Shown one piece after another: positions 25,054 through 63,037 of a stretch of 64,000 bases of DNA; within the stretch, counting starts at the first letter, position 1; each line of letters starts with the position of its first letter. Source of the DNA: Terriglobia bacterium. GTDB lineage: Bacteria; Acidobacteriota; Terriglobia; JAJPHL01; JAPKYU01. A program made the translations under genes and the position numbers. The stretch is from contig CBDBKE010000004.1 in assembly GCA_965206645.1 (NCBI GenBank), positions 448,001 through 512,000 on the forward strand. The letters run 5' to 3'. Under the pieces are notes generated by a model, which had not been told where the DNA came from, ran no database searches, and worked only from the letters and a program-made list of their open reading frames with translations.

Positions 25054-25059
25054 CGAGGT

Positions 25060-32111: not shown

Positions 32112-32117
32112 AACCCA

Positions 32118-33624: not shown

Positions 33625-33655
33625 GATGGACGACTCCTGAAATGCCACTCTGTAA

Positions 33656-36750: not shown

Positions 36751-36951
36751 CAACAGATGACCAATTACCTCATGGACCGTGCGGTCGAGCACGAGCGCGA
36801 AGCGCCGGTCAAGGAGAAGACGGCGGCGGAGTTGAGCCACCAATATTCTCATGCTCGCGGGCCTCAGATCAGCCAGACGCCGAAGCAATCCACGGAACAA
36901 CACGCGCAGAAGCTCCAACGCGAGGCTGGGTTGAGCCGGTAAGGAGCCGTC

Positions 36952-37848: not shown

Positions 37849-37858
37849 GGGAGAAGCG

Positions 37859-38182: not shown

Positions 38183-38214
38183 TGCACAGCGACCCAACAG
38201 ACACGGAGGGAAGC

Positions 38215-38804: not shown

Positions 38805-38807
38805 CGC

Positions 38808-41231: not shown

Positions 41232-41237
41232 CTGATT

Positions 41238-43429: not shown

Positions 43430-44340
43430 AACACCGAATTTTTACCGGAGCGGTGGTCATCCCGCTTCTGATCGTGCTGACCACCACGCCCGCCTACGCC
43501 ATCTTCGGCTCGATCCTGGCGGGCATTCAACGGGCGCAGATGATCATCAATCAGGGCGTCCAGATTTACGAGGCGCAGATCGCCAAGCTGACGATGGACA
43601 CCCAATTGACCGAACTGACGGACCAGTTCTCACACTTGAAAGATCAGGCGCTCGGAAGCGTCGGCGCGCTCACCGATCCGTTCACCGACCTGGCATCGGT
43701 CCCGACGCGGTTCATCGGCGTGGGCCTATCGTGGAAAAGCGATTTTACCGGCGTGGCGGCGGAGCTTGCGTCGTCAGTCGAACAGATGGGCGAAACCGGC
43801 AAGAGCTTTGCCCAATCCTGGCGCGGGCGGCTCACCGCCGCCGACACGGTGACCGAGAGCGACATCCTCACTCTGTACGGGGACTATCGCCCGGAGATCG
43901 CGGCGCAGGCGGCCAGCGGCTACCTCGCGGCGCGGGAGGAAGGCGACAAGCGCCTGGTGCTCGATCACGCAATGAGCGACGCGGCGGCGAATCTCATGAT
44001 TGCGGCGCGAGACGCCGTGGAGTCCTACGAAGGACTACGAAACAACACCAATACTTCCAACACCGCCCTTGCTCAATCACAAGTGGCCGGGACGGTGACG
44101 CAAGGAAACCTCACCGCTGCTATGGCGCAGTTGATGGCATTCCAGGCGGCGAAGGAGGCGGCAGAGGATTACGAACGCGAGATTGCTCGGCGGGAGGCGC
44201 TGGCTCGATGGATCGAGACGCAGCGCCGCGCCGAGATCACCTTCGCGGCGCAACAGGCCGGGCTCGATGCCCGCCGCGATTCCATGCGCGAAGGGTTGCT
44301 CTTTCGGATTCACCCGGCCTACGGCGGGAACGGCCAGTAA
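43426..44340 (+). CDS. secreted helical T4SS protein (VirB5/TrbJ-like)
   Basis: Signal peptide, coiled-coil character, position before VirB6. Confidence 0.6.
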   Translation: MKHRIFTGAVVIPLLIVLTTTPAYAIFGSILAGIQRAQMIINQGVQIYEAQIAKLTMDTQLTELTDQFSHLKDQALGSVGALTDPFTDLASVPTRFIGVGLSWKSDFTGVAAELASSVEQMGETGKSFAQSWRGRLTAADTVTESDILTLYGDYRPEIAAQAASGYLAAREEGDKRLVLDHAMSDAAANLMIAARDAVESYEGLRNNTNTSNTALAQSQVAGTVTQGNLTAAMAQLMAFQAAKEAAEDYEREIARREALARWIETQRRAEITFAAQQAGLDARRDSMREGLLFRIHPAYGGNGQ

Positions 44341-44352
44341 TCCATTTCGCCG

Positions 44353-45351
44353 ATGCAGATTCAACTCGATCCCAACATCCCGGCCAACCTTTCCCCGGAA
44401 CAACTGAGGGACTTCAAGTCGTTCCTCGATGTCGCTCTGGATGGCCTGACCGCGGCGGCGGCCGGGGAGGTTTTCGCCACCGGAAACGCGCTCTTCGGGG
44501 GGCTGGCTCTCATCGTTGTGGTGTTGAAGGGGCTGAAGATCGCCTTTAGCGGAAACATTCAGCCGTGGGAGCTGGTGCGGGTCGTCATCGGGCTATGGAT
44601 ACCGTGGGTGATGTTGCAGTTCTACACCACCACCATTCCGGGAATGGCTTTCACCTTCCCAGGGATGATTGCGGCGGGCGGAAATTGGCTTCACGAACTG
44701 CTGATCGGCGATGCCGTCTATTCGATGCAGACCGAGCTTGGCAACCTCATTCGCTCCCTTGCGGCGAACCAGGCAGCCCAGGCGCAAGCGGGGAACACGC
44801 TCGGCCTACTCACCGGCGGGATTCATGCCGCGATAACGGCGGTTGCGGGGTTTGCAATGTTTGTGTTCGTAGTCCTTATGCTCCTTCTGTTGGCCGCCGT
44901 CACCTACGCTCAAGTGATCTGGGCTCAAATCGCGCTTGCCATCCTCATCATCTTGGGGCCGATCTTCATTCCGTTTCTGGTGTTCGAGCCGCTGTCGTTT
45001 CTGTTCTGGGGATGGTTCCGGGCGATGATTACCTACTCGCTTTATGCCGTGATCGCCGGAGCGGTGCTGCGCGTGTTCTCCGCTGTCGGAATCTCCTACA
45101 TCACGAGCTTGGGGAATGCCAACCTGGACATGCAGAGCTTCATAGACGTGGGCTTGTGGATGATCGCCGTCGTGCCCTTGTTTGTCGCCGGGATGCTGGC
45201 AAGCCTCAAGTGCGGGGAGCTCGCCTCGATGCTCGTTACCAGCACAGGAGCAGCCGGCAGCGGCCTCATGGGGATGGCAACCACGGCGGGAACGGTTGCG
45301 GCCACCGGAGGCGCGGCGGCGGCGAAGATCGGAGCAGGGGGGATTAAATGA
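44353..45351 (+). CDS. virB6: VirB6/TrbL
   Basis: Polytopic; LGPIFIPF..F.GW; Gly/Ala-rich tail. Confidence 0.85.
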   Translation: MQIQLDPNIPANLSPEQLRDFKSFLDVALDGLTAAAAGEVFATGNALFGGLALIVVVLKGLKIAFSGNIQPWELVRVVIGLWIPWVMLQFYTTTIPGMAFTFPGMIAAGGNWLHELLIGDAVYSMQTELGNLIRSLAANQAAQAQAGNTLGLLTGGIHAAITAVAGFAMFVFVVLMLLLLAAVTYAQVIWAQIALAILIILGPIFIPFLVFEPLSFLFWGWFRAMITYSLYAVIAGAVLRVFSAVGISYITSLGNANLDMQSFIDVGLWMIAVVPLFVAGMLASLKCGELASMLVTSTGAAGSGLMGMATTAGTVAATGGAAAAKIGAGGIK

Positions 45352-46025
45352 GCGAACCCGAAACCGCCGGCAAAGATGCCGGAGCCGAGTACGCCGAAAT
45401 ATGGGGCGAAGCCATCCACTCCAACCGTCATCTACGGGTGCTCTCCGTCGGGTTGGGAATCGGGTTGCTCTTGCTCATCATCGTCGTCATTCGTATTGTG
45501 TCGGTTGATCCGCCCCGCCCCATCGTCGTGAGGGTCGATGAAGTAGGCCGGGCCGAGGCCATCGCCTACGAGGCGATGGAGGCCCAGGCCGACCCGCTGG
45601 ACTCCACCACCAAATACTTTCTCAATCGCTTCATTTACGACTTCTACTCGCGGCGGCGGGCCACGGTCCAAGAGAACTGGTCCCGCAGTCTGCGCTTCCT
45701 GACCACGGAGCTTGCCAACGCAAGTTTCCGGGCCGAGAGTCAGAATATCGCTCTTCTCGCGGCGGGAGCGGCGCGGGATGAACTGCAAGTGGATCGCGTC
45801 GTTTTGAGGATTCAGGCCAATCCCCAGGAGCCGCACAGCGCGACGGCAGATTTTGACCTGGTGCGGATGGTGATGGCAAACGAAGTAAGCCGGGAGCGCT
45901 GGACCCTCTCGCTGCAATTCCAGTTCCTCGATGAGATCCCGCCGGACCTGATCGTCCACAACCCTATGGGGATCGTTATCAGCTATCTGCAAGGGGATCG
46001 GGCGATAGTCACCGGCGACCAATGA
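45348..46025 (+). CDS. virB8: VirB8/TrbF
   Basis: One TM, PIVVRVD, NPMGIVI. Confidence 0.85.
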   Translation: MSEPETAGKDAGAEYAEIWGEAIHSNRHLRVLSVGLGIGLLLLIIVVIRIVSVDPPRPIVVRVDEVGRAEAIAYEAMEAQADPLDSTTKYFLNRFIYDFYSRRRATVQENWSRSLRFLTTELANASFRAESQNIALLAAGAARDELQVDRVVLRIQANPQEPHSATADFDLVRMVMANEVSRERWTLSLQFQFLDEIPPDLIVHNPMGIVISYLQGDRAIVTGDQ

Positions 46026-46966
46026 TGATCGAGCACTTGCGCGGACGCGAAACAGCACTGGAAGCGCTCGGCTGGACCGGGCCGGAGGCGGAGTGGATCG
46101 CGCTGGTGTGTCTGCATAGCGGCGTCTTCACCCGCGCTCAATTCTGTCACTACTTCAATACAGATCGGAAGCAGGCGCTTCGCTTTGTAAAGGCATTGAT
46201 TGACCGCCGGGCGGCGGTCGAAAGCGATCATGTAACGTTCAACGGCGGCGGGCGGACGTGCCGGATATCGAACAAGCCGATCTATCGGGCGCTGGGAGTC
46301 GAGAACATCCGCCACCGGCGCAAGGCCCATCCGCCGGTTGTGATGCGGCGGCTGCTCTCGTTGGATTTCGTTCTGGAACATCCGGGCATGAACTGGCTCC
46401 CCGCCGAGCCGGAGAAGGTCGCGTTTTTTGACGGGCTCGGCCTATCGCGGCGGCTGATCCCGCGACGGATTTACTACGGCGCTGTGGGAGCGCAGAAGCG
46501 CTACTTTGCGCTCAAACTTCCCCTGGCCAGTGACGCTGAAACCGTCATCTTCGCCTACGTCGATCCGGGCCACCAAACGGATCGGGAGTTGCACTCCTGG
46601 GGAGCCGCGCATGGGCCGCTTTGGGATGCGCTTCGCAAAAAGGGGCGGCAGGTCCGGGTGATCGGGATTGCGGCGGAAAACGAAACCGTGGATCGGACGG
46701 CGCGGGTGCTCCGCGTGTGGGCCGCAGCCCCCGCGAAGGAGACCGGAGAGGGGCGGACGTTGGCGGAGGAAATCAAGAGGATCGACACCGCACTGAGAAC
46801 CAATGATCCGATAGTCCTGGCCGAGTACGGGGGATTCAACGCGGCAATGAAAAAAGGAGCGGAACTCGAAAGTCTCCCGGAGGCAAAAGTGACGGAAGGG
46901 GTCTCGATTGACGACTATTCGACGTGGCGGGCCACCCGGTTTGCGGCGCGAGACGAAGGCGGATGA
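46022..46966 (+). CDS. conserved hypothetical wHTH-like DNA-binding protein next to the origin-like region
   Basis: Homolog at 57293-58234 and remnant at 11525-11596; function inferred. Confidence 0.7.
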   Translation: MMIEHLRGRETALEALGWTGPEAEWIALVCLHSGVFTRAQFCHYFNTDRKQALRFVKALIDRRAAVESDHVTFNGGGRTCRISNKPIYRALGVENIRHRRKAHPPVVMRRLLSLDFVLEHPGMNWLPAEPEKVAFFDGLGLSRRLIPRRIYYGAVGAQKRYFALKLPLASDAETVIFAYVDPGHQTDRELHSWGAAHGPLWDALRKKGRQVRVIGIAAENETVDRTARVLRVWAAAPAKETGEGRTLAEEIKRIDTALRTNDPIVLAEYGGFNAAMKKGAELESLPEAKVTEGVSIDDYSTWRATRFAARDEGG

Positions 46967-47325
46967 AAAGAGCGCACAAACCCGGGAGTTTTTGTGCCAC
47001 TGAGGACCGCATGTTAAGTGCCACGCGCTCGGAGTGGGGGGTGTGGCACGATTCTAGCTAAAGGTGCGGCAAAACCACATTCCTTTATGTCTCTCATTCC
47101 GCTGTGTTTCTCCCCTGCTAATCGGACTCACCCGCGCCGATCCAGGAAAATCGGGGAGGACGATAGCGACCCCCCGAAAACCGGGGGGGCATGTGGCCCC
47201 GATAGCGGCGCGCTGTTCCACGCCTCTATCCGGCCCCATGCGGGGTCGCTATCGTCCTCATTGATCCCTGCGGGAAGGCTCGGAGCAGCCCCCAACGGGG
47301 GCGCTGACGGAAGGGAGACGGAGCT
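46967..47325 (+). promoter_or_regulatory. origin-like (oriT/oriV candidate) structured intergenic region
   Basis: Four TGCCRC boxes at 23-24 bp spacing; invariant CTCATTCCGCTGT; 18-bp perfect IR 47156-47173 / 47242-47259. Confidence 0.6.
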
Positions 47326-49437
47326 ATGAAATGGCGGCGCTTCATTCCTCACATCCTTCTGTTTTTCGGCGGCCTGGGGTACGCCCTGTGGAGCTTTGTC
47401 CGCCGTCCCTTCCCCATGCTTGGGGATAGTCCCTTGCTCGATCTCATGGACTATCACACCCCCAACTTCTACGGCTGGGTGATGCTCTGGTACTACGCTT
47501 CGCCTTTCGTCGCCGTCATGCTCGCGGGGCTCATTCTCATGTCCGTCTGGAAGGTCTGGCTGGAATCGCGGCGGCGGGATTTCGCGCCCTTTGGGGCGCT
47601 CCCGACCTGGCCGCTTTCACCCCGGCAAACGGCCCCGGCCATCGTAATCGGTGAGGTTCATCATCCGGTGGAGGCGCGCGAGATTTTCAATCCCTCCTGG
47701 CTCACGATCCCGGAGCGTGGGCTGTATACCGGCGTGGCGATTTTCGGAGCCGTCGGGTCCGGGAAGACCTCGGCTTGTATGCACCCCTTCGCCCGCCAGC
47801 TTCTCGGCTGGCAAGCCGAGAATCCACAGATGCGGGCGGCGGCGCTCATGCTTGAAGTCAAGGGAGATTTCTGTCACGACATCCGCCAAATCCTGATCGA
47901 GGCGGGCCGGGGAAAAGACTACATCGAGCTTGGCATGAATGGGCGCTGGCAATGGAACCCGCTCTCGGCCTGGTGGCTCGATTCCTACTCGCTGGCCTAC
48001 ACCGTTTCGAGCCTTCTCAACCAGCTGTTCGGGAAGGGCAAGGAACCCTTCTGGCAGCAAGCCTATACCAACCTGGTCCGCTGGATCATTGAGCTTCACC
48101 GGATATTCCCGGAACGGTGGGTGACGTTGCAGCAGGTCTACCGCTGCGCCATCGACCCGGACCTTTTCGCAGCCAAGATCGAGCAAGCCGAAGCGTGGAG
48201 CGACGAGTTGAACAAGGGAACCGTTTTCGTTCGGGCCGATCTAGTAGGCGAGAACAAAATGAAGCTGGCTGAATGGGTATGGGAAGGGACGCTGGGCCGG
48301 GAGGAACAGCAAGCCGTCTACAGCCGCGCCTTGCTCAACAAACTGGACGAGCTCAAGCTGACCTACCGGGTGGTTTGGGACCCCGGACCCGGAGACGAAG
48401 TGAGAGAACGGGTGGAGGCGGTGAAGCGCTGGTTTGTCAACGACTGGCAAACGCTGGATAACAAAATCAAGTCCTCGATTGTGGAGGGGGTTTCGGTATT
48501 CCTTGCCATGTTCGACATGCCGGATGTGGCGAAGGTGTTTTGCCCGCCCGCGCCGGAAGTCCCCGACGATCCACAAGCCATTGCAATTCAGGCCAGGGCC
48601 GCGAAGCGGGCCGGGGAAGAAGCCCGGGAGCCGAACAAGGAGCCGGAGGCCGCGCCCACGTCGATTCCTTCCGTCGAAGAGGAACGAATCGCCGGGCCGC
48701 GACACCTGCCCTCGCTCTATGAATTGATCGAAAGGGGCAAGGTGCTGGCCTTGAATATGCCCGCCGGATCGAACCCGGCGCTGGCCCGCGCCGTGGGCGT
48801 GATGCTCAAGAACGCCTGGCTACAGGCGCTTCTCATGCGCCCGACCAAGATGAAGGAGTCGCCGGGCGTCTACTTCCGCCCGGCGGTTTTCATCTGCGAC
48901 GAGTATCAGGCGTTTGCTTCGGTGGGCGAGGACGATCCATCGGGCGATGAAAAATCCTTTGCGCTAACCCGGCAATGCCGCTGCATCCCGATTGTCGCCA
49001 CTCAATCCATTTCCTCGCTCCGATCTGTGTTGGGAAGCTCGGAAGCATGGCGGTCGCTGTTGCAGACGCTCCGCACACGGATTTTCCTGTCTCTCAGCGA
49101 CGACGCCAGCGCCAAGATTGCAAGCGAAATGTGCGGGCAGGTGGCGAAGATCAAGGGATCCTACACGATCAGCGAGACCTCCAAGCGGGCGGAAGTCTCC
49201 CCGCTGTCAGGCCGCGCCGGTGGAGGCGGCGGCAGCATCGGCGCGACCAAGTCTTTCCGGGAGCAACGCGAGGCCGTGTTTCACCCGCGAGACTTCACGC
49301 TGCTCTCGAACTGTCAAGCGATCTGTCTGCCCTATGACGGGGCGCAGTCGCTTGAACCGCGCCGGGTCTATCTCAAGCCTCACTATCTGCCCCTCGATTA
49401 TTCCTATTGGAGAGCGAAGGAGGCGGGCAGATTATGA
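47326..49437 (+). CDS. virD4: VirD4/TraD-like type IV coupling protein
   Basis: Two N-terminal TMs, GAVGSGKT, EVKGD, FICDEY, ATQS. Confidence 0.85.
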   Translation: MKWRRFIPHILLFFGGLGYALWSFVRRPFPMLGDSPLLDLMDYHTPNFYGWVMLWYYASPFVAVMLAGLILMSVWKVWLESRRRDFAPFGALPTWPLSPRQTAPAIVIGEVHHPVEAREIFNPSWLTIPERGLYTGVAIFGAVGSGKTSACMHPFARQLLGWQAENPQMRAAALMLEVKGDFCHDIRQILIEAGRGKDYIELGMNGRWQWNPLSAWWLDSYSLAYTVSSLLNQLFGKGKEPFWQQAYTNLVRWIIELHRIFPERWVTLQQVYRCAIDPDLFAAKIEQAEAWSDELNKGTVFVRADLVGENKMKLAEWVWEGTLGREEQQAVYSRALLNKLDELKLTYRVVWDPGPGDEVRERVEAVKRWFVNDWQTLDNKIKSSIVEGVSVFLAMFDMPDVAKVFCPPAPEVPDDPQAIAIQARAAKRAGEEAREPNKEPEAAPTSIPSVEEERIAGPRHLPSLYELIERGKVLALNMPAGSNPALARAVGVMLKNAWLQALLMRPTKMKESPGVYFRPAVFICDEYQAFASVGEDDPSGDEKSFALTRQCRCIPIVATQSISSLRSVLGSSEAWRSLLQTLRTRIFLSLSDDASAKIASEMCGQVAKIKGSYTISETSKRAEVSPLSGRAGGGGGSIGATKSFREQREAVFHPRDFTLLSNCQAICLPYDGAQSLEPRRVYLKPHYLPLDYSYWRAKEAGRL

Positions 49438-50399
49438 GCGCCGCGAGTGGACTGGAACACCTGAAACCGTTTCTACCGGGATTGGAAAGCGCCCTGGAAG
49501 ATTCCGAAGTCAGCGAGATCATGATTAACGGGCCGTTCAATGTCTGGGTCGAGCGGGCCGGGCGGTTGACGGCACATGACGCGCCGGACCTGGACGAATC
49601 GGCCCTGTTGCGGGCGGCCATCCACATCGCCCGTCCTTTGGGCTTGGATCCGGCGAGCTCGCCGATTGTCGATGCGCGCCTGGACGACGGCTCGCGGGTT
49701 GCCATCTGTGTCCCGCCCGCGAGCCCCACGGTGGCGATCACCATGCGGCGCTTTGGCAAGCGGGCGTTCTCGGCGGATGATCTCGTGAAGCAAGGCGCAC
49801 TTCCTAAAAACGTGCGTGCGGAAGCGGAGCGGGTGTTGCGCTCGCGCCGCAACATCCTGGTTTCAGGCGGCACCGGATCGGGCAAGACCACCCTGCTTAA
49901 CGCACTTATTGAATTGCTTCCCGACGACGAGCGTATTGTCGCCATCGAGGACACCCTGGAGCTTCGCATCGAGCGCTCCAATTGCGTCCGCTTCGAGGCT
50001 CGCGGATTACAGGAAGGAGCGGTGACGATCCGGGACTTGGTACGCCACGCGCTGCGTCACCGCCCGGATCACATCGTCGTGGGCGAGGTGCGCGGCGGGG
50101 AGGCGGCGGACCTGCTGCAAGCCTTGAATACCGGACACGGCGGCTCGCTCACCACCGTACACGCCAACAACGCCGAGTCGGCCTTGTCGCGCATCGCCAG
50201 TTGCGCCATGCAGGGCGGCGGTGAGCTTCCCTGGGAGGTCACATGCCGAGGCGTGGTGGACGGCATCGCTATGGTGATTCACATGACGCGCCGCGAGGGA
50301 CGCCGCTTCGTGGAGGAGGCCTTGCTCGTGGAAGGTTATGACGCACCACAGAACCGCTGGCTCATCGAGCCAATCCGGAGGGAACACGATAACGGATGA
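49434..50399 (+). CDS. virB11: VirB11/TrbB ATPase
   Basis: SEIMING, SGGTGSGKTT, IEDTLEL, RPD..VGEVRG, NTGHGG..T.HAN. Confidence 0.93.
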   Translation: MSAASGLEHLKPFLPGLESALEDSEVSEIMINGPFNVWVERAGRLTAHDAPDLDESALLRAAIHIARPLGLDPASSPIVDARLDDGSRVAICVPPASPTVAITMRRFGKRAFSADDLVKQGALPKNVRAEAERVLRSRRNILVSGGTGSGKTTLLNALIELLPDDERIVAIEDTLELRIERSNCVRFEARGLQEGAVTIRDLVRHALRHRPDHIVVGEVRGGEAADLLQALNTGHGGSLTTVHANNAESALSRIASCAMQGGGELPWEVTCRGVVDGIAMVIHMTRREGRRFVEEALLVEGYDAPQNRWLIEPIRREHDNG

Positions 50400-50542
50400 A
50401 GACCCTCAAGGACTCCACCCCTGATCTCGCCGAAGCCCTGCATCGTGATGCCACCGGCGAGTGGGACTAACGACAAAATCGCAACAGCCTCTCCGCGCGG
50501 AGTTCCCCCTTGTGGTCTTGTATGGAGAGTAGGGAGGGAAAG

Positions 50543-50758
50543 ATGAGCCTTGACGGAGAAGCGCCAGATGCCCCGATCACGGTGAAGGCCGCCGCCCGCT
50601 TCTTGGGGGTTAGCCCCTCGCTGGTGTATGCTTACGTCGAGCGAAAGCAGATTCCCCATCTCCGCGTGATGGGGCGAAGCATCCGGTTTCTCAAATCGGA
50701 TTTGGAGCCCTTCCGCGCAAGCTTCAGGCAGGAGGTGGAGAATGGCAAGACCGAGTAA
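50543..50758 (+). CDS. xis: excisionase-like HTH protein
   Basis: TVKAAARFLGVS..VY..IP..RF; overlaps the integrase start. Confidence 0.85.
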   Translation: MSLDGEAPDAPITVKAAARFLGVSPSLVYAYVERKQIPHLRVMGRSIRFLKSDLEPFRASFRQEVENGKTE

Positions 50759-51869
50759 GCATGATGGTGTCATCTATCGCCGGAACGACAGCAACATTTG
50801 GTGGATGCGCTATCGGGATAAGGCCGGGCGGCGTCGCCTGGAATCAACACGAACGGAGGACTGGCAAGAAGCCCAACGGTGCCTACGCGAGCGGCTTCAG
50901 GCCAGAGACAATAATACCCTGGCCGCCCTTCGCCGGGGTCAACGGGTTACTTTCGGGGAATGGGCCGACTTTTTCCTGGTCAACTACTCTCAGCCCCCGA
51001 TTCGGGCCGAGAAGACTCACGAGGCAAACGAATGCGCGCTCAAGAGTCTGCGGCCAGTGTTCGGACCGATGAAGATAACCGAGATCGGAGCTGAGCAAAT
51101 CGAGCTTCATCTCCGCCAACGGCTGCAACAGCACAAGCGAGTCCGTCGTCGGAGTGGTGTCGTCGAACTCGGGCTTCTGAAACCCACCACCGTGCATCAA
51201 GAGCTTCGAGTTCTCCGGCGTATCTTTAGTGTTGCAGTGAAGAAGAAGCTCTGCCCGGCCAACCCCTGCGCCGGCGTGGAGTTTCCGGTGATCCTGAAAG
51301 GTTTCTTCCGACCCCACTACATGACCTGGTCCGAGCAGCAGAAAATCGAGCGGCATGCTCCCGCCTATCTCAGGAACATAATTCGGATCATCACGGAAAC
51401 GGGGCTCCGGGTCTATAAAGAGCTTGCCGCTATGCGCAAGGATCGAGTAGACCTCGCCAACAAGGTAGTCTTCGTGGAAGATTCGAAGACACCGACCGGG
51501 GTAGCCGAGGTTCCTTTGACCGGCATGGCTACTGAAGCCTTCCGTAACCAGATCGAATTAGCGGGACCCGGCCCATGGCTCTTTCCCAGCCCGCAGAACC
51601 CAATTGGGCATCAGACTAACTTCAGAAAGACCTGGGAAAGAGCACTCCGCAGAGCCGGAGTTCCCTACTTCCGCTTATACGACCTGCGCTCCACCCACGC
51701 TACGCGCCTTAGCGCCGGCGGCGTTGCGGACGAGTGGGTGACCCAGCTTCTTCGTCAGACGGACGCCAAAGTCTTCAAGAAGTATTCTCAGATGAAGCTC
51801 CAGATGAAGCGGGATGCGTTGACAAAACTCAATCACCGTGCAAATGAAACTGCAGCCGTTGGGTTTTGA
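50742..51869 (+). CDS. int: tyrosine integrase of the left ICE
   Basis: Arm-binding N-terminus, TGLR, SKT, YDLR, terminal Y (FKKYS). Confidence 0.92.
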   Translation: MARPSKHDGVIYRRNDSNIWWMRYRDKAGRRRLESTRTEDWQEAQRCLRERLQARDNNTLAALRRGQRVTFGEWADFFLVNYSQPPIRAEKTHEANECALKSLRPVFGPMKITEIGAEQIELHLRQRLQQHKRVRRRSGVVELGLLKPTTVHQELRVLRRIFSVAVKKKLCPANPCAGVEFPVILKGFFRPHYMTWSEQQKIERHAPAYLRNIIRIITETGLRVYKELAAMRKDRVDLANKVVFVEDSKTPTGVAEVPLTGMATEAFRNQIELAGPGPWLFPSPQNPIGHQTNFRKTWERALRRAGVPYFRLYDLRSTHATRLSAGGVADEWVTQLLRQTDAKVFKKYSQMKLQMKRDALTKLNHRANETAAVGF

Positions 51870-51921
51870 TACGGCACATCAACAGTTGTAGGGTTTTGAT
51901 ACGGTTTTGATACGGTTTTGA
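51861..51921 (+). repeat. GGTTTTGATAC repeats, putative integrase arm sites
   Basis: Three full copies and one partial; the same motif is mirrored at 52138-52191. Confidence 0.75.
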
Positions 51922-51983
51922 GGTTCAGGGATGGGCAAATGCAATCGAGACCGATTTAACTCATTGATTTCGAAGGACTGGAC

Positions 51984-52060
51984 TGGTGGGCGACAGAGGA
52001 CTCGAACCTCTGACCTCCTGCGTGTGAAGCAGGCGCTCTAACCAACTGAGCTAGTCGCCC
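51984..52060 (-). tRNA. tRNA-Val(CAC)
   Basis: GGGCGACTAGCTCAGTTGGTTAGAGCG-CCTGC TTCACAC GCAGG-..GGTTCGAGTCC..GTCGCCCACCA; full cloverleaf with encoded CCA. Confidence 0.97.
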
Positions 52061-52137
52061 CTTGGAGTTACTTCCTTTCTTCCAAACCACTTGCAGATTC
52101 TGTTCCATCGGCGAAATCGCTTAAACCGGCCCCAATT

Positions 52138-52191
52138 GTATCAAAACTGTATCAAAACCCCAGTTTTTTGGGCCCGGAGTGTATCAGAACC
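52138..52191 (-). repeat. TT(T/C)TGATAC repeats, putative arm sites of the right ICE
   Basis: Three copies on the minus strand overlapping the integrase 3' end. Confidence 0.7.
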
Positions 52192-53298
52192 CTGCTCCTC
52201 ACCCGCCTGACGGTTTAGACGCCGTAGCGCTTCCCGTTTCATCCCCAGTTTCATCTGTGAGTACTTCTTGAACACCTTCGCATCACTTTGCCGCAGGAGC
52301 TGGGTCACCCACTCGTCTGCCACGCCTCCCGCGCTTAAACGGGTTGCATATGTCGAGCGCAGATCGTAGATCCGGAAGTACGGAACGCCCGCGCGTTCCA
52401 ACGTTGTGCGCCAGATCTTCTTGAAGCTCGCCTGGTAGCCGCGCTGATTCCGACCGCTCGGAAACAACCACGGCCCTGGTCCAGCAAGCCAGAGCTGGTC
52501 GCGGAAGGCCTCTACCGCCAAGTCCGTCAGTGGCACCTCCCCCACGCCGGTGGGGGTTTTCGAGTCAGGTATCCAGACCACTGCGTTTGCCAGGTCGACC
52601 TGGTCTTTCCGCATCGGTGCAAGCTCCTTGTAGACCCGTAATCCGGTTTCGGTGATGATCCGGATCAGGTTCCGCAAGTACGGAGGTGCGTGCAACTCAA
52701 TCCGCTGCTGTTCCGACCACGGCATGTAGTGCGGCCGAAACAACCCCTTGACCGTGACCGGGAACTCCGCTGAGTTGCAAGGGTTGGCCGCGATGAACTT
52801 CTTCTTCACCGCGACATTCAACACCCGGCGCAACACGCGAAACTCCTGGTGCACGGTCGCCGGCTTCAGCAGCCCGAGCTCCCGATACCCCAGCCGTGTC
52901 CTGACTCGCTTCTGTTGCCGAAGCCGCCAGCGCAAGTACCCCTCAACATCCTCGGCGCCGATGGCGGACAACATTTGCGGTCCGAACACGGGCTTGAGTT
53001 GCTTCACCGCGTTTTGGTTGGCTGCGTGCGTCTTCCTACTCCGCAAGGGCGGCTGGGAATAGTGCTCCAGGAAAAAGTCCGCCCACTCGTGAAACCTGAG
53101 TTGTTGGCCGCGCCGAACGAGCGCGAGCACGTTCTCATCGCGTGCCTGCAATCGTTCACGTAGCCGTGTTTGGGCTTCCTGCCAGTCACTTGTCTCTGTG
53201 GATTCGAGGCGCCGGGTGCCGTCTCGATCCCAGTACCGCATCCACCAGAAACGGCCGCGCCGGTACAGGACGCCGTCATGCTTTTTCGGTCGTGCCAT
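52141..53298 (-). CDS. int: tyrosine integrase of the right ICE
   Basis: Paralog of 50742-51869 with the same motifs. Confidence 0.92.
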   Translation of the reverse strand: MARPKKHDGVLYRRGRFWWMRYWDRDGTRRLESTETSDWQEAQTRLRERLQARDENVLALVRRGQQLRFHEWADFFLEHYSQPPLRSRKTHAANQNAVKQLKPVFGPQMLSAIGAEDVEGYLRWRLRQQKRVRTRLGYRELGLLKPATVHQEFRVLRRVLNVAVKKKFIAANPCNSAEFPVTVKGLFRPHYMPWSEQQRIELHAPPYLRNLIRIITETGLRVYKELAPMRKDQVDLANAVVWIPDSKTPTGVGEVPLTDLAVEAFRDQLWLAGPGPWLFPSGRNQRGYQASFKKIWRTTLERAGVPYFRIYDLRSTYATRLSAGGVADEWVTQLLRQSDAKVFKKYSQMKLGMKREALRRLNRQAGEEQGSDTLRAQKTGVLIQF

Positions 53299-53512
53299 TC
53301 ACCACCTCCTGTTGAAACGTGGCGCGAAAGGCCGAAAGCTCCGATCGTAAAAACCGGATGTTCCGGCCCATCACGCGGAGATGGGGAATCTGCCGCCGCT
53401 CGACCCAAGCATACACGGTCTGCGGACTCACGCCAAGAAACCGGGCAGCCTCCTTCACCGTCAACGGTACCTCGTGGGCCAAAGCCTGCATCACAACCGC
53501 CTCAACCAACAC
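53276..53512 (-). CDS. xis: excisionase-like HTH protein
   Basis: LTVKEAARFLGVSPQTVY. Start uncertain. Confidence 0.85.
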   Translation of the reverse strand: MLVEAVVMQALAHEVPLTVKEAARFLGVSPQTVYAWVERRQIPHLRVMGRNIRFLRSELSAFRATFQQEVVNGTTEKA

Positions 53513-53837
53513 ACCTATCGCAACGAGGACTCAGAGCACACCTGTTCCAATGTCCAACAGTGACCATCGCCACCCAACCCCGCCGTCGGCGAGCGCTTTG
53601 AGCACGCGCGTCTTGGCTTCTCCCGTGGCGCGCAGGGCAACCCCGGCGCTCATCGCCGGCGTCAACTCTCTTTTTCTACCAGTCATTGGTGCAGGGGTCC
53701 CGCACGGCTTCCCGGATCTTCTTCCTCGCCGCCCACGTCCTCGGGAAAGACGCCGTCTTGTTCGGCGATCCAGGCCGGGACTTCCAGCGTCTCCTCACCG
53801 CCCCGGCCGAGCTCCCGGTCGAAGTCCTCGATAGTCT

Positions 53838-54803
53838 TTATCCGTCATCGTGTTCCCTCCAGATCGGCTTGATGAGCCAGCGGTTCTGTGGCGCGTCGTA
53901 GCCCTGGACGAGCAGCGCTTCCTCCACGAAGCGACGTCCCTCTCGCCGTGTCATGTGAATCACCATAGCGATGCCGTCCACCACGCCCCGGCAGGTGACT
54001 TCCCAGGGAAGCTCCCCGCCGCCCTGCATGGCGCAACTGGCGATGCGCGACAAGGCCGATTCGGCGTTGTTGGCGTGTACGGTGGTGAGCGAGCCGCCGT
54101 GTCCGGTGTTCAAGGCTTGCAGCAGGTCGGCGGCCTCGCCGCCCCGGACCTCGCCCACCACGATGTGATCCGGGCGGTGCCGCAAGGCGTGGCGCACCAG
54201 GTCGCGGATCGTCACCGCGCCGGTTTCCAGGCCCCGAGCCTCGAAACGGACGCAATTAGAGCGCTCGATGCGAAGCTCCAGGGTGTCCTCGATGGCGACG
54301 ATGCGCTCGTCATCGGGTAGTAGTTCGATCAGCGCATTGAGCAGGGTGGTCTTGCCCGATCCGGTGCCGCCTGAAACCAGGATGTTGCGGCGCGAGTGCA
54401 ACACCCGCTCCGCTTCCGCTCGCACGTCTTCGGGGAGTGCGCCTTGCGTCACGAGATCATCCGCCGAGAACGCCCGCTTGCCAAAGCGCCGCATGGTGAT
54501 CGCCACCGTGGGGCTCGCGGGCGGAACACAGATGGCAACCCGCGATCCGTCGTCCAGGCGCGCATCGACAATCGGCGAGCTCGCCGGGTCCAAGCCCAAA
54601 GGACGGGCGATGTGGATGGCCGCCCGCAATAGGGCCGATTCGTCCAGGTCCGGCGCGTCATGTGCCGTCAACCGCCCGGCCCGCTCGACCCAGACATTGA
54701 ACGGCCCGTTAATCATGATCTCGCTGACTTCGGAATCTTCCAGGGCGCTTTCCAATCCCGGTAGAAACGGTTTCAGGTGTTCCAGTCCACTCGCGGCGCT
54801 CAT
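53838..54803 (-). CDS. virB11: VirB11/TrbB ATPase
   Basis: Near-identical to 49434-50399. Confidence 0.93.
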   Translation of the reverse strand: MSAASGLEHLKPFLPGLESALEDSEVSEIMINGPFNVWVERAGRLTAHDAPDLDESALLRAAIHIARPLGLDPASSPIVDARLDDGSRVAICVPPASPTVAITMRRFGKRAFSADDLVTQGALPEDVRAEAERVLHSRRNILVSGGTGSGKTTLLNALIELLPDDERIVAIEDTLELRIERSNCVRFEARGLETGAVTIRDLVRHALRHRPDHIVVGEVRGGEAADLLQALNTGHGGSLTTVHANNAESALSRIASCAMQGGGELPWEVTCRGVVDGIAMVIHMTRREGRRFVEEALLVQGYDAPQNRWLIKPIWREHDDG

Positions 54804-56911
54804 AATCTGCCCGCCTCCTTCGCTCTCCAATAGGAATAATCGAGGGGCAGATAGTGAGGCTTGAGGTAGACACGTCGCGGTTCAAGCGACTGCGACCCGT
54901 CATAGGGCAAACAGATCGCTTGACAGTTCGAGAGCAGCGCGAAATCTCGCGGGTGAAACACGGCCTCGCGTTGCTCCCGGAAAGACTTGGTAGCGCCGAT
55001 GCTGCCCCCGCCTCCACCGGCGCGGCCCGAGAGCGGGGAGACTTCCGCCCGCTTGGAGGTCTCGCTGATCGTGTAGGATTCCTTGATCTTCGCCACCTGC
55101 CCGCACATTTCGCTTGCAATCTTGGCGCTGGCGTCGTCGCTGAGAGACAGGAAAATCCGTGTGCGGAGCGTCTGCAACAGCGACCGCCAAGCTTCCGAGC
55201 TTCCCAACACGGAGCGCAGCGAGGAAATGGATTGAGTGGCGACAATCGGGATGCAGCGGCATTGCCGGGTCAGCGCAAAGGATTTTTCATCGCCCGATGG
55301 ATCGTCCTCACCCACCGAAGCGAAGGCTTGATATTCGTCACAGATAAAGACGGCGGGCCGGAAATAGACCCCCGGCGACTCCTTCATCTTGGTCGGGCGC
55401 ATGAGAAGCGCCTGTAGCCAGGCGTTTTTGAGCATCACGCCCACGGCGCGGGCCAGCGCCGGGTTCGATCCGGCGGGCATGTTCAAGGCCAGCACCTTGC
55501 CCCTTTCGATCAATTCATAGAGCGGGGGAAGGTGTCGCGGCCCGGCGATTCGTTCCTCTTCGACGGAAGGAATCGACGTGGGCGCGGCCTCCGGCTCCTT
55601 ATTCGGCTCCCGGGCTTCTTCCCCGGCCCGCTTCGCGGCCCTGGCCTGAATTGCAATGGCTTGTGGATCGTCGGGGATTTCCGGCGCATCCGGACAAAAC
55701 ACCTTCGCCACATCCGGCATATCGAACATGGCAAGGAATACCGAAACCCCCTCCACAATCGAGGACTTCACTTTGTTGTCCAGCGTTTGCCAGTCGTTGA
55801 CAAACCAGCGCTTCACCGCCTCCACCCGTTCTCTCACTTCGTCTCCGGGTCCAGGGTCCCAAACCACCCGGTAGGTCAGCTTGAGCTCGTCCAGTTTGTT
55901 GAGCATGGGGCGGGAGTAGGCGGCCCGCACTTCTTCCGTTCCCGGTATGTCTTTCCATAGCCATTCAGCCAAGGTCATGATGTGGGCTTGGTATACGACC
56001 TCCGGAATGAAAACCGTGCCTTTGTTCAACTCGTTGCTCCACGCTTCGGCTTGCTCGATCTTGGCTGCGAAAAGGTCCGGGTCGATGGCGCAGCGGTAGA
56101 CCTGCTGCAACGTCACCCACCGCTCCGGGAAGATCCGGTGAAGCTCGATGATCCAGCGGACCAGATTGGTATAGGCTTGCTGCCAGAAGGGTTCCTTGCC
56201 CTTGCCGAATAGCTGGTTGAGAAGGCTGGAAACGGTGTAGGCCAGCGAGTAGGAATCGAGCCACCAGGCCGAGAGCGGGTTCCATTGCCAGCGCCCATTC
56301 ATCCCCAGCTCGATGTAGTCTTTTCCCCGGCCCGTCTCGATCAGGATTCGCCGGATATCGTGACAGAAATCTCCCTTGACTTCGAGCATGAGCGCTGCCG
56401 CCCGCATCTGTGGATTCCCTGCTTGCCAGCCGAGAAGCTGCTTGGCGAAAGGGTGCATACAAGCCGAAGTCTTGCCGGACCCGACGGCCCCGAAGATCGC
56501 CACGCCGGTATACAGGCCACGCTCCGGGATGGTGAGCCAGGAGGGATTGAAAATCTCCCGCGCCTCGACCGGGTGATGAACCTCCCCGATCACGATGGCC
56601 GGGGACTTTTGTTGGGGTGAAAGCGGCCAGGTTGGAAGGGCGCCGAAGGGTGCAAAATCCCGCCGCCGCGCTTCCAGCCAGACCTTCCAAACGGACATGA
56701 GAATGAGCCCCGCGAGCATGACGGCGAAGAAAGGCGAAGCGTAGTACCAGAGCATCACCCAGCCGTAGAAGTTCGGGGTGTGGTAGTCCATGAGATCGAG
56801 CAAGGGACTATCCCCAAGCATGGGGAAGGGACGGCGGACAAAGCTCCACAGGGCGTACCCCAGACCGCCGAAAAACAGAAGGATGTGAGGAATGAAGCGC
56901 CGCCATTTCAT
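54800..56911 (-). CDS. virD4: VirD4/TraD-like coupling protein
   Basis: Same length and motifs as 47326-49437. Confidence 0.85.
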   Translation of the reverse strand: MKWRRFIPHILLFFGGLGYALWSFVRRPFPMLGDSPLLDLMDYHTPNFYGWVMLWYYASPFFAVMLAGLILMSVWKVWLEARRRDFAPFGALPTWPLSPQQKSPAIVIGEVHHPVEAREIFNPSWLTIPERGLYTGVAIFGAVGSGKTSACMHPFAKQLLGWQAGNPQMRAAALMLEVKGDFCHDIRRILIETGRGKDYIELGMNGRWQWNPLSAWWLDSYSLAYTVSSLLNQLFGKGKEPFWQQAYTNLVRWIIELHRIFPERWVTLQQVYRCAIDPDLFAAKIEQAEAWSNELNKGTVFIPEVVYQAHIMTLAEWLWKDIPGTEEVRAAYSRPMLNKLDELKLTYRVVWDPGPGDEVRERVEAVKRWFVNDWQTLDNKVKSSIVEGVSVFLAMFDMPDVAKVFCPDAPEIPDDPQAIAIQARAAKRAGEEAREPNKEPEAAPTSIPSVEEERIAGPRHLPPLYELIERGKVLALNMPAGSNPALARAVGVMLKNAWLQALLMRPTKMKESPGVYFRPAVFICDEYQAFASVGEDDPSGDEKSFALTRQCRCIPIVATQSISSLRSVLGSSEAWRSLLQTLRTRIFLSLSDDASAKIASEMCGQVAKIKESYTISETSKRAEVSPLSGRAGGGGGSIGATKSFREQREAVFHPRDFALLSNCQAICLPYDGSQSLEPRRVYLKPHYLPLDYSYWRAKEAGRL

Positions 56912-57292
56912 AGAGTCCGTTTCCCTTCTTTCATCGCCCCGGCTGGGGGCGCTCTTCCGAGCCTTCCCGCAGGGATAAATGAGGACGATAGCGACCCTCA
57001 TGGGGGGGCAGGAACGGTGTGCCGCAACGCACCGCTGCTGGGGCCACATGATCCCCCACTTTTCGGGGGGGTCGCTATCGTCCTCCCCGATTTTCCTGGA
57101 TCGGCGCGGGTGAGGCCGCTCGACAGGTGATAACCACAGCGGAATGAGGGAGATGGGAGAATGTAGTTTTGCCGCATCTCTTGGCTGAATTTTGCCGTAC
57201 CCTCCCTCTGTGACTGCGGCACCCTGGATAGGGCGTTGCGGCATGAAAAAAACCTTCAATTTCCTCTCTCCGTTCCGGCCTTCGTGCTGCTT
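56912..57292 (-). promoter_or_regulatory. origin-like structured intergenic region, copy 2
   Basis: 17-bp IR 56981-56997 / 57069-57085; four TGCCG boxes; CTCATTCCGCTGT. Confidence 0.6.
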
Positions 57293-58234
57293 TCATCCGG
57301 TTTCCTCCAGGACCGCAAACCGGGCGGCCCGCCACGTCGAGTAGTCGTCAATCGAGACCCCTTCCGTCAGCTTCGCTTCGGGGAGACGTTGAAGCTCCAC
57401 CGACCGTCTTCCGGCTGCCGCGAATCCCCCATACTGCGCCAGAAATTCCCGGTCCTTGTGAGTCATCGCGTCGTCAATCGCCTTGATTTCCTGCCGCACC
57501 GTCCACCCTTCCCCGGTCTCCTTCGGGGCGGTCGCGGCCCACACCCGGAGCACCCGCGCCGTCCGATCCACGGTTTCATTCTCCGCTGCGATCCCGATCA
57601 CCCGGACCTGTCGGCCTTTCTTACGCAGCGCATCCCAAAGCCGCCCATGCGCGGCTCCCCAGGAGTGCAACTCCCGATCCGTTTGGTGGCCCGGATCGAC
57701 GTAGGCGAAGGTGACGGTTTCGGGGTCCGCCGCAATAGGAAGTTTGAGCGCAAAGTAGCGTTTCTGCGCTCCCACAGCACCGTAGTAAATCCGTCGCGGG
57801 ATCAGTCGCCGCGAGAGGCCGAGCTTTTCAAAGAACGCAACCTTCTCCGACTCGGCGGGGAGCCAGTTCATGCCCGGATGTTCCAATACGAAATCGAGCG
57901 AGAGAAGGCGGCGCATCACCACCGGCGGGCGGGCTTTGCGACGGTGGCGGATGTTCTCGACCCCCAGCGCCCGGTAGATCGGCTTGCTCGATATCCGGCA
58001 CGGCCTCGCCCCCCCGGAGAACATCAAGTTTTCATTCTCTACCGCTGCCCGCCGTACAACCAACGCTTGGACGAAGCGGTGCGCCCGCTTGCTCTCCGCA
58101 TCAAAGTAGAAACAGAACTGCGGGCGAGTGAAGACGCCGCTGTGAAGGCACACCAGCGCGATCCACTCCGCTTCCCGGCCCGTCCAACCGAATTGTTCCA
58201 GTGCTGTTTCCCTTCCCCGCAAGTGCTCGATCAT
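57293..58234 (-). CDS. conserved hypothetical wHTH-like protein
   Basis: Homolog of 46022-46966. Confidence 0.7.
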   Translation of the reverse strand: MIEHLRGRETALEQFGWTGREAEWIALVCLHSGVFTRPQFCFYFDAESKRAHRFVQALVVRRAAVENENLMFSGGARPCRISSKPIYRALGVENIRHRRKARPPVVMRRLLSLDFVLEHPGMNWLPAESEKVAFFEKLGLSRRLIPRRIYYGAVGAQKRYFALKLPIAADPETVTFAYVDPGHQTDRELHSWGAAHGRLWDALRKKGRQVRVIGIAAENETVDRTARVLRVWAATAPKETGEGWTVRQEIKAIDDAMTHKDREFLAQYGGFAAAGRRSVELQRLPEAKLTEGVSIDDYSTWRAARFAVLEETG

Positions 58235-58908
58235 TGGTCGCCTGTGACTATCGCCCGATCCCCTTGCAGATAGCTGATAACGATCCCCATAGGGTTGTGG
58301 ACGATCAGGTCCGGGGGGATCTCATCGAGGAACAGGAATTGCAGCGAGAGGGTCCAGCGTTCCCGGCTTACTTCGTTTGCCATCGCCATCCGCACCAGGT
58401 CAAAATCGGCCGTCGCGCTGTACGGCTCCTGGGGATTGGCCTGAATCCGCAAAACGACGCGATCCACTTGCAGTTCATCCTTTGCCGCTCCTGCCGCGAG
58501 AAGAGCGATATTTTGACTCTCGGCGCGAAACGAGGCGTTGGCGAGCTCCGTGGTCAGGAAGCGCAGACTGCGGGACCAGTTCTCTTCGACCGTGGCCCGC
58601 CGCCGCGAGTAGAAGTCGTAAATGAAGCGATTGAGAAAGTATTTGGTGGTGGGGTCCAGCGGATCGGCCTGGGCCTCCATCGCTTCATAGGCGATGGCCT
58701 CGGCCCGGCCTACTTCATCGACCCTCACGACGATGGGGCGGGGCGGATCGACCGACACAATGCGAATGACGACGATGATGAGCAAGAGCAAGCCGATTCC
58801 CAACCCGACGGAGATCACCCGTAGATGACGGTTGGAGTGGATGGCCTCGCCCCATATTTCGGCGTACTCGGCTCCGGCGTCTTTGGCCTTGGTTCCGGGT
58901 TCGCTCAT
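58231..58908 (-). CDS. virB8: VirB8/TrbF
   Basis: Near-identical to 45348-46025. Confidence 0.85.
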   Translation of the reverse strand: MSEPGTKAKDAGAEYAEIWGEAIHSNRHLRVISVGLGIGLLLLIIVVIRIVSVDPPRPIVVRVDEVGRAEAIAYEAMEAQADPLDPTTKYFLNRFIYDFYSRRRATVEENWSRSLRFLTTELANASFRAESQNIALLAAGAAKDELQVDRVVLRIQANPQEPYSATADFDLVRMAMANEVSRERWTLSLQFLFLDEIPPDLIVHNPMGIVISYLQGDRAIVTGDQ

Positions 58909-59903
58909 TTAATTCCTCCCGCGCCCGCCTTTGCCGCCGCCGCGCCCCCGGTGGCCGCAACCGTTCCCGCCGTGGTCGCCATTCCCATGAGGCCGCTCCC
59001 CGCCGCTCCTGTGCTGGTAACGAGCATCGAGGCAAGCTCTCCGCACTTGAGGCTTGCCAGCATCCCGGCGACAAACAAGGGCACGACGGCGATCATCCAC
59101 AAGCCCACGTCTATGAAGCTCTGCATGTCCAGGTTGGCATTCCCCAAGCTCGTGATGTAGGAGATTCCGACAGCGGAGAAGACCCGGAGCACCGCTCCGG
59201 CGATCACGGCATAAAGCGAGTAGGTAATCATCGCCCGGAACCATCCCCAGAACAGAAACGACAGCGGCTCGAACACCAGAAACGGAATGAAGATCGGCCC
59301 CAAGATGATGAGAATGGCAAGCGCGATTTGAGCCCAGATGACTTGAGCGTAGGTGACGGCGGCCAACAGAAGGAGCATAAGGACTACGAACACAAACATT
59401 GCAAACCCCGCAACCGCCGTTATCGCGGCATGAATCCCGCCGGTGAGTAGGCCGAGCGTGTTCCCCGCTTGCGCCTGGGCCGCCTGGTTCGCCGCGAGGG
59501 AGCGAATGAGGTTGCCAAGCTCGGTCTGCATCGAATAGACGGCATCGCCGATCAGCAGTTCGTGAAGCCAATTTCCACCCGCCGCAATCATCCCTGGGAA
59601 GGTGAAAGCCATGCCCGGAATGGTGGTGGTGTAGAACTGCAACATCACCCACGGTATCCACAACCCAATGACGACCCGAATCAGTTCCCACGGCTGAATG
59701 TTCCCGCTAAAGGCGATCTTCAGCCCGTTCAACACCACAACGATGAGCGCCAGACCCCCGAAGAGCGCGTTTCCGGTGGTGAAAACCTCCCCGCCCGCCG
59801 CCGTCGTCAGTCCATCCAGAGCGACATCGAGGAACGATTTGAAGTCCCTCAGTTGTTCCGGGGAAAGGTTGGCCGGGATGTTGGGATCGAGTTGAATCTG
59901 CAT
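58905..59903 (-). CDS. virB6: VirB6/TrbL
   Basis: Near-identical to 44353-45351. Confidence 0.85.
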   Translation of the reverse strand: MQIQLDPNIPANLSPEQLRDFKSFLDVALDGLTTAAGGEVFTTGNALFGGLALIVVVLNGLKIAFSGNIQPWELIRVVIGLWIPWVMLQFYTTTIPGMAFTFPGMIAAGGNWLHELLIGDAVYSMQTELGNLIRSLAANQAAQAQAGNTLGLLTGGIHAAITAVAGFAMFVFVVLMLLLLAAVTYAQVIWAQIALAILIILGPIFIPFLVFEPLSFLFWGWFRAMITYSLYAVIAGAVLRVFSAVGISYITSLGNANLDMQSFIDVGLWMIAVVPLFVAGMLASLKCGELASMLVTSTGAAGSGLMGMATTAGTVAATGGAAAAKAGAGGIK

Positions 59904-59915
59904 CGGCGAAATGGA

Positions 59916-60830: not shown

Positions 60831-60833
60831 TTT

Positions 60834-63031: not shown

Positions 63032-63037
63032 AATCAG

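Follow-up and report, generated by a model that had tools for sequence, protein, structure and literature searches.

The sole tRNA-Val(CAC) gene of a Terriglobia bacterium lies between two related integrative and conjugative elements of opposite integration polarity

To which DNA does a tRNA gene belong when an integrase gene runs into it from either side? The question is raised by tRNA-Val(CAC) of a Terriglobia bacterium, the sole tRNA in the 64-kb stretch analyzed here (the window; G000:C4:448001-512000, where G000 is the source genome and C4 its contig) and the only gene with anticodon CAC among the 50 tRNA genes of G000. ARAGORN places it on the minus strand at 51984-52060, with its 3' end at 51984. 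An earlier note on this DNA had described the gene as intact, as lying between the stop codons of two convergent paralogous integrase genes with no host flank on either side, and as the meeting point of sister elements that use the same tRNA in opposite orientations. The layout is borne out in each respect. The stop codon of intA (50742..51869, plus strand) is 114 nt from the tRNA 3' end, that of intB (52141..53298, minus strand) is 80 nt from the tRNA 5' end, and both flanks run into a 13.7-kb inverted repeat (36755-50414 versus 53823-67522, 92.9% DNA identity) that has the tRNA at its center, leaving no host DNA on either side.

This repeat is the conjugation backbone of two elements, hereafter A (left) and B (right), occupying 36755..50414 on the plus strand in A and 53823..64000 on the minus strand in B, where it continues to ~67522 beyond the window. 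Pfam matches to TrbC, VirB3, TraG P-loop/AAA_10, CagX, TrbI, TrbL, VirB8, TraG-D_C/TrwB and T2SSE were found on both sides, and both sides combine type IV secretion genes with a VirB4-type ATPase and a coupling protein, the gene content by which we class them as integrative and conjugative elements (ICEs). Between the backbones and the tRNA, the integrase-excisionase modules (50573-51818 versus 53467-52228) share only 68% DNA identity. We typed integration polarity from the DNA downstream of the integrase stop codon, which may hold the tRNA or a fragment of it in sense or antisense. IntA (375 aa; PF00589, E 4e-16) has the tRNA antisense downstream and is of 3' polarity, IntB (385 aa; PF00589, E 2e-16) has it in sense and is of 5' polarity, and the two proteins are 72% identical (264/369 residues). 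Each side also has an excisionase gene of its own, as the earlier note had observed: xisA (50510..50758, plus strand; PF12728 and TIGR01764), which lies upstream of intA, and xisB (53276..53512, minus strand; TIGR01764, E 7.5e-14) encode excisionase-family helix-turn-helix proteins that both match TIGR01764 and are 68% identical.

What each element did to the tRNA gene can be read from their far ends. We searched 51840-52200 against the G000 genome with blastn-short and then read the matching sequences, which gave two displaced pieces of the gene, both in the orientation of the intact tRNA. One holds tRNA nt 28-77 (49/50 identical) at C4:433305-433354 (window -14695..-14646), 66.6 kb to the left; the other holds nt 1-42 (42/42 identical) at C4:569032-569073 (window 121032-121073), 69 kb to the right, and the MoxR-like ATPase gene of the right flank begins 42 nt past it. 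No further tRNA-Val fragment was found by blastn-short between these two outer fragments. The earlier note had asked for a 3' fragment at the far left and a 5' fragment with native upstream DNA at the far right, and these are the pieces that were recovered. The locus consequently reads left flank, 3' fragment, element A, intact tRNA, element B, 5' fragment and right flank, with element A spanning ~66.6 kb (C4:433355-499983; it starts at ~-14645, outside the window, beside the displaced 3' fragment) and element B ~69.0 kb (C4:500061-569031; it ends at ~121031 beside the displaced 5' fragment).

Within the intact gene, the block repeated at the far end of A covers 51984..52033 and the block repeated at the far end of B covers 52019..52060, both on the minus strand. 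The two overlap only in the anticodon stem-loop (52019..52033, loop 52022-52028), the putative crossover region of both elements, and the B block places the core of the right attachment (att) site inside the tRNA rather than wholly outside it. Comparison of these blocks supports a working tRNA-Val(CAC) gene composed wholly of island DNA, in which A would have rebuilt the back half and B the front half, and which would be the chimeric att junction that had been suggested for it. We consider it very probable that two related ICEs occupy one tRNA gene from opposite sides, A restoring its 3' part and B its 5' part. As an aside on the gene itself, the T stem of the element-borne 3' part is fully paired (AGAGG/CCTCT); the displaced native fragment, like the tRNA of the related genome G003, reads CCCCT, which leaves an A-C mismatch in that stem.

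Related genomes provide the native state of the locus and both intermediate states. An intact tRNA-Val(cac) stands beside the MoxR-like gene in 10 of 11 relatives' loci. In G004 (locus L014) and G006 (locus L012), which belong to the same family as G000 but to other genera, a DUF58 gene (left flank), the tRNA and the MoxR gene are contiguous within ~200 bp, the empty site with which the earlier note had asked for a comparison. Two genomes of the same genus as G000 each hold one element. G001 has A only: an A-type integrase end, 98% identical, lies at the tRNA 3' side and is followed by the conjugation backbone (94.5%), while the tRNA 5' side has native upstream DNA and MoxR. G003 carries B but not A: the distance between the tRNA 5' end and a 98%-identical intB is 83 nt, MoxR is found 34 kb from the tRNA together with the far arm of B and the 42-nt fragment, and no A-type integrase is present at this tRNA-Val(CAC). 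The outer flanks of G000 agree with these genomes, as the DNA upstream of its 5' fragment equals that upstream of the intact G001 tRNA and the DNA downstream of its 3' fragment is similar to what follows the empty-site tRNA of G004. All four occupancy states (empty, A alone, B alone and both) are present among close relatives, which rules out a single indivisible unit and an origin by homologous inversion. Together with the matching displaced fragments, they uphold the use of one tRNA by sister elements in opposite orientations.

How, then, do two such similar integrases come to use opposite halves of one gene? The repeat TTTTGATAC occurs five times in the window, always within 160 bp of the tRNA, as three plus-strand copies to the left of the gene and two minus-strand copies to its right. 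Shuffling gives an expectation of 0.13 copies, with at least five copies in 0/100 shuffles, which substantiates the arm-like repeats previously noticed on each side. The three left copies are the P-arm repeats of A (51864..51913, plus strand), at -157, -127 and -116 bp from the center of the anticodon loop, and the two right copies together with TTCTGATAC are those of B (52138..52189, minus strand), at +117, +128 and +160 bp. One B copy (52138-52146) overlaps the intB stop codon, and the other copy and TTCTGATAC lie within the 3' end of intB. The distal (P') repeats are at +123 and +134 bp in A and at -123 and -134 bp in B; in G000, two TTTTGATAC repeats come ~110 nt after the displaced 3' fragment, and the displaced 5' fragment is preceded by another two, which lie on the opposite strand. 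Relative to its integrase gene, every arm repeat has the same direction in A and in B.

Both polarities also share a motif ~60 bp from the loop, which reads AAGTGGTTTAGAATCAA in 5'-type arms and takes the form of related strings such as AAGTCTTTTGCAATCAGG in 3'-type arms. An integration host factor (IHF)-like site had been listed on the tRNA 3' side, and WATCAANNNNTTR (51957..51969, minus strand), which sits in this motif, semi-conserved in the arms of the integrase family, is indeed the only IHF consensus match in the window. With 0.45 matches expected by shuffling and at least one in 35/100 shuffles, however, the match is not above chance, and it is missing from the 98%-identical element of G001; we dropped it as evidence. 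Pfam at E<=1e-5 returned PF00589 only, and no arm-binding N-terminal domain, for IntA and IntB, although a divergent domain is possible.

The core of the two attP sites lies in the tRNA. The anticodon stem, CCTGC/GCAGG, is a perfect inverted repeat that encloses the loop TTCACAC (tRNA sense). Read from the integrase gene, attP-A has nt 77-28 in antisense and attP-B has nt 1-42 in sense. Owing to the symmetry of the stem, its 5-bp halves flanking the loop read alike in the two attP sites, and only the 7-nt loop is inverted. The mirror-equal arm distances and the overlap of the identity blocks point to one attP design in which the core is flipped. Strand exchange by both integrases would most likely occur in the 7-nt anticodon loop, with the palindromic stem serving as the core sites, the exact crossover being a point that we infer.

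For tyrosine recombinases in general, the orientation of the crossover sequence in attP sets the direction of insertion. In the mechanism we propose, the attP of element A would have brought tRNA nt 28-77, rebuilt the 3' part and pushed the native 3' part 66.6 kb downstream. The attP of element B would have brought tRNA nt 1-42 together with 80 bp of its own upstream DNA, rebuilt the 5' part and stayed clear of the native one, leaving it, promoter region included, next to the MoxR-like gene at a distance of 69 kb upstream. Whether an element lands on one side of the tRNA or the other would thereby depend on how the loop is oriented in attP. More speculatively, and in our estimate improbably as a whole, the near-palindromic layout of the tRNA may allow the attP core to flip against fixed arms, so that sister ICEs could coexist as inverted rather than deletion-prone direct repeats; elements of the 5' type would then bring the tRNA promoter, and expression of the host tRNA would pass to the element, possibly coupled to Int/Xis binding.

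Opposite polarity is found well beyond this locus. IntB has 13 matches in G000, 2 in G001 and 16 in G003. Nineteen paralogues, taken from these genomes and from a pair in G023, divide into 9 whose downstream tRNA, or 40-42-nt 5' fragment of one, is in sense and 10 in which it is in antisense, and well-supported branches of their tree force at least two polarity changes. To these we added a pattern scan with one genome per species, which returned 490 relatives; the best 80 of the 490 were analyzed, all titled as Acidobacteriota-type metagenome-assembled genomes except one labelled Baltobacteraceae. Polarity could be typed in 62 of these best 80, comprising 40 5'-type and 22 3'-type loci, and 18/80 were dropped, as they lacked either an open reading frame (ORF) of at least 330 aa or, between -60 and +400 nt from the stop, a complete tRNA. 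On a quick tree of 72 integrases, with Shimodaira-Hasegawa-like approximate likelihood ratio test (SH-aLRT) support only and three long branches, polarity has to change five times, and well-supported branches force four of these changes; the changes usually coincide with a change of target tRNA. Judged from these typed loci and trees, 5' versus 3' polarity appears to be a trait of the integrase family that has flipped repeatedly, with 5' the majority state. An independent check came from the chromosome to which L118 belongs: tRNA-Pro(TGG) there has the integrase at its 5' side and, after another 188 kb in the upstream direction, a correctly oriented 43-nt 5' fragment. A phylum-wide sample had an IntB match at E<=1e-60 in only 2/301 genomes, too sparse for typing.

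Within the family, mirror pairs are occasional and not obligatory, with a convergent partner integrase within 900 bp in 2/80 related loci. Elsewhere in G000, a second tRNA is clamped in the same manner (C4:2047515-2050066, locus L040), where tRNA-Val(TAC), at c[2048746-2048822], has a 3'-type integrase on one side (2047515-2048636, plus strand) and a 5'-type integrase on the other (2048915-2050066, minus strand). A mirror pair is also seen in G023 at tRNA-Pro(TGG). In G003, an A-type and a B-type integrase converge on tRNA-Arg(TCT) (C2 ~1914655-1914731; L022 1150-1560), and between this tRNA and the B arm lies a ~20-nt remnant of the tRNA-Val 5' part, joined at a shared GGCGC; from its sequence, this arrangement looks like a rearranged or retargeted att site.

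If B supplies the front half of the gene, it also supplies the DNA in front of it, and the region upstream of the tRNA (52061..52140, minus strand) is B DNA that replaces the native promoter region. A TA[GA]AAT hexamer is present in 39/40 5'-type arms of other genomes, where the distance from its end to the first nucleotide of the tRNA is 15-18 nt (mostly 18), and in 1/22 3'-type arms, at a different distance. This pattern fits an element-borne -10 box, with the caveat that related loci are not independent samples. Only this sharpened hexamer is specific to the 5' type: a second candidate, the AAGTGGTTT.GAATCA motif, was rejected as 5'-type-specific on finding a related motif at the same place in 3'-type arms, and is probably part of the recombination site. 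The nearest relative of B (L048) reads TGGAAT at the hexamer position. Two extended -10-like strings, TGGTATAAT upstream of the native 5' part and TGATACAAT in a B arm repeat, are unvalidated candidates picked out by eye; a two-hexamer promoter scan of the native upstream region gave 0 matches, as did terminator scans there and around the rebuilt tRNA. Read-through from intB into the tRNA is possible because intB is transcribed towards it. In contig X15, which is 160 nt long and stems from an RNA library, the tRNA 5' part is continuous with the end of intB, with one mismatch; the contig may reflect DNA carry-over.

The reading of two opposed integrations at one tRNA gene has to be weighed against three alternatives and against several observations that tell against it. 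The assembly could have falsely joined two copies of a repeated element family around the tRNA, and G000 is indeed rich in repeats, with dozens of near-identical copies of a 1.25-kb insertion sequence (IS) and at least eight related element copies that carry a risk of rearrangement or misjoining. C3:1-11847 moreover duplicates C4:1971746-1983597 (11.8 kb, 98%, inverted), whether as a real duplication or as an assembly boundary effect. Sequencing reads were consulted through 15 runs that contained at least half of the sampled words, four of which (X1, X2, X4 and X15) were examined, all as short Logan contigs; among these fragmented contigs none spans intA-tRNA-intB, a result that is uninformative on the assembly either way, and the same holds for the absence among them of an excised circle or a restored attB. 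Contig joints linking 50700 with 53351 (on opposite strands) and 52060 with 52138 are compatible with relatives or with repeat-induced joins in the graph, and were not used. A false join is nevertheless highly unlikely. The arms are 7% diverged and the integrase-excisionase modules 32% diverged, which excludes a fold-back chimera; the outer ends both carry matching tRNA fragments and native flanks; G001 repeats the A junction and G003 the B junction together with the far end of B, in separate assemblies of other species; and contig X15 contains the junction of the tRNA 5' part with intB. A second alternative would have both elements integrate in the usual 3' manner, whether at this tRNA or at another, a later inversion through the homologous elements or IS copies having moved intB to the tRNA 5' end. 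The 13.7-kb inverted repeats and the many IS copies make inversions likely, and dispersed copies of integrase plus fragment suggest past rearrangements, but what a homologous inversion cannot produce is a direct repeat of the first 42 nt that breaks off in the anticodon stem and adjoins the native promoter and MoxR. As the outer flanks are also contiguous in empty-site relatives and the sense arrangement with fixed spacing is present in 40/62 typed loci of other genomes, we regard this history as improbable in the extreme.

A composite element, in which a 135-kb unit moves as a whole with its own tRNA-Val, is a very unlikely third alternative. Its outermost sites share the core sequence in direct orientation, so that excision of the whole block is formally possible, and mirror pairs recur at tRNA-Val(TAC) in G000, tRNA-Pro in G023 and tRNA-Arg in G003. 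The same tRNA, however, has A without B in G001 and B without A in G003, its position is native, and, as noted above, only 2/80 related loci have a convergent partner within 900 bp. Beyond these alternatives, further observations sit uneasily with two independent, mobile ICEs and an element-driven tRNA. Four dispersed B-like integrase copies (C4:1073435-1074623; C4:1973733-1975027; C3:8573-9856; C3:425413-425878) are each joined to nt 1-40 of tRNA-Val(TAC) and then to identical non-tRNA sequence, and none has an intact tRNA close by. They are not accounted for by simple integration; candidate explanations are IS-mediated rearrangement, insertion at look-alike sites and intact attP sites. A genome search found no displaced fragments for the G023 tRNA-Pro(TGG) pair, which is only suggestive. 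The VirB4-like gene of B is present as two ORFs of 96 and 708 aa (63038-65394, partly beyond the window) versus 807 aa in A, which may be a frameshift, and B may be defective. No relaxase was identified among 122 called ORFs (Pfam, E<=1e-5; four locus-border ORFs not scanned) or among 24 selected ORFs (NCBIfam). With regard to transcription, element B reads TGGAAG at the hexamer position (52079-52084, minus strand), a degenerate copy, and the two-hexamer promoter scan gave 0 matches on both strands around the tRNA.

Both backbones encode VirB2/TrbC, VirB3, a VirB4-like ATPase, VirB9/CagX, VirB10/TrbI, VirB6/TrbL, VirB8, a TraG/VirD4-type coupling protein and a VirB11-type ATPase. Beyond the backbone and the att region, the two elements differ in what they carry. 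The A/B homology is bordered on its outer side by the 1.25-kb IS, with an rve/HTH_21 transposase (35501..36750, minus strand); its dozens of copies, of at least 99% identity, are spread over all four G000 contigs, one bordering the A backbone and two lying inside element B. The cargo part of A (1..36754), annotated with Pfam, comprises a type I restriction-modification (R-M) system (HsdR, HsdS and HsdM; 21652-27698), an MmeI-like fused methylase-nuclease (12147-14492), a group II intron reverse transcriptase/maturase ORF (7309-8703; RVT_1 and GIIM), several transposases and two further tyrosine recombinases, and the element also holds plasmid-type RepA/ParA genes. We count element A as one att-bounded unit because blastn-short found no internal tRNA-Val fragment, although the left 66.6-kb island, with its further recombinases and RepA/ParA genes, may instead be several nested elements. 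Beyond the left edge of the window, element A encodes a fused E2/ThiF(E1)/JAB/patatin protein of 1180 aa (L001 8800-13444, window ~-11200 to -6556), whose neighbor matches the anti-phage 6A-MBL family (NF058524, E 2e-87); the two proteins are defense cargo of A. On element B, a set resembling type 1 bacteriophage exclusion (BREX) systems (L003 3725-18206, window ~87700-102200) comprises BrxA, BrxB, BrxC, a PglX-type methylase, PglZ and BrxL, the last split into two ORFs of 378 and 315 aa.

To place the two elements among known tRNA gene (tDNA) islands, we compared them with the Islander collection, in which Table 1 counts 159 islands with a 5' tDNA fragment versus 3760 with a 3' fragment, of 3919, and 2083 islands are given an anticodon-centered attP (Hudson, Lau and Williams 2015, PMC4383910). 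Such islands are recognized by a tyrosine integrase beside an intact tDNA and a displaced fragment in the same orientation, 2-200 kb away for the 3' class. Element A has all of these features and is an ordinary member of the 3'-fragment class, element B has those of the 5' class and is a member of that known class, and an empty site was found for both. As in classic 3'-restoring islands and ICEs, element A has its integrase gene at the tRNA 3' end, a far 3' fragment, arm-type repeats on both sides and an excisionase gene upstream of the integrase gene. Element B agrees with the 5' class in having the integrase gene inside the island, the intact tRNA at the integrase-proximal end, a distal same-orientation 5' fragment, a block that ends in the anticodon stem and a length of 69 kb. 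The restoration of the 5' part by the right element, which the earlier note had put forward as a departure from the usual pattern, is therefore upheld by the 42/42-nt fragment, but as a catalogued minority class and not as something unknown; insertion into the front half is in itself a known minority arrangement.

Measured against the 5' class, element B differs in bearing a type IV secretion system, in belonging to an integrase family with a 5' majority (40/62 typed loci) versus ~4% in Islander overall, and in sharing its tRNA with a sister element of opposite polarity. Unlike classic tandem arrays, in which elements stack on the 3' side, the second element here is a mirror image on the 5' side, and the backbones are inverted rather than direct repeats. 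The closest functional precedent is from HTVC019P-type pelagiphages, whose attP, like that of element B, carries the 5' part of a tRNA gene; there, this part complements the split host gene and integration was shown by junction sequencing (bioRxiv 10.1101/410191). These are small SAR11 podophages with core sites described at the 5' end or middle of tRNA-Cys/Leu/Arg, whereas A and B are 66-69 kb conjugative-type islands of an Acidobacteriota-like genome whose integration is read from genomes only. With lambda-type heterobivalent integrases, A and B share arm motifs on both sides of the core at 116-160 bp and an adjacent excisionase gene, and a DNA-bending protein may bind the A/T-rich motif that lies ~60 bp from the putative crossover; they differ in that IntA and IntB have no Pfam-recognized arm-binding N-terminal domain, and the repeats are putative binding sites.

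In the literature we found no sister ICEs (93%-identical backbone, 72%-identical integrases) on both sides of one tRNA, a weak negative given that the prime sign is not searchable. Nor did we find a mirror-equal attP geometry of this kind or a polarity-flipping, 5'-predominant integrase family, negatives weakened likewise in that phrases such as 5' end are not searchable. Mirror double occupancy by sister ICEs and a polarity-flipping integrase family of this kind appear to be undescribed.

With 72%-identical integrases and superimposable attP arms that act on opposite halves of one tRNA gene, the locus offers a natural experiment on integration polarity. It also bears on how such islands are found, as island finders that seek only 3' fragments will miss or mis-bound elements of this widespread soil-bacterial integrase family, in which the 5' type is the majority. 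The anti-phage loads of the two elements, type I R-M, the MmeI-like enzyme and 6A-MBL on A and BREX on B, make the locus a double-sided defense island. For the host, the reconstruction suggests that mobile-element DNA can come to make up the whole of a single-copy tRNA gene, whose transcription signals would be supplied by the element.

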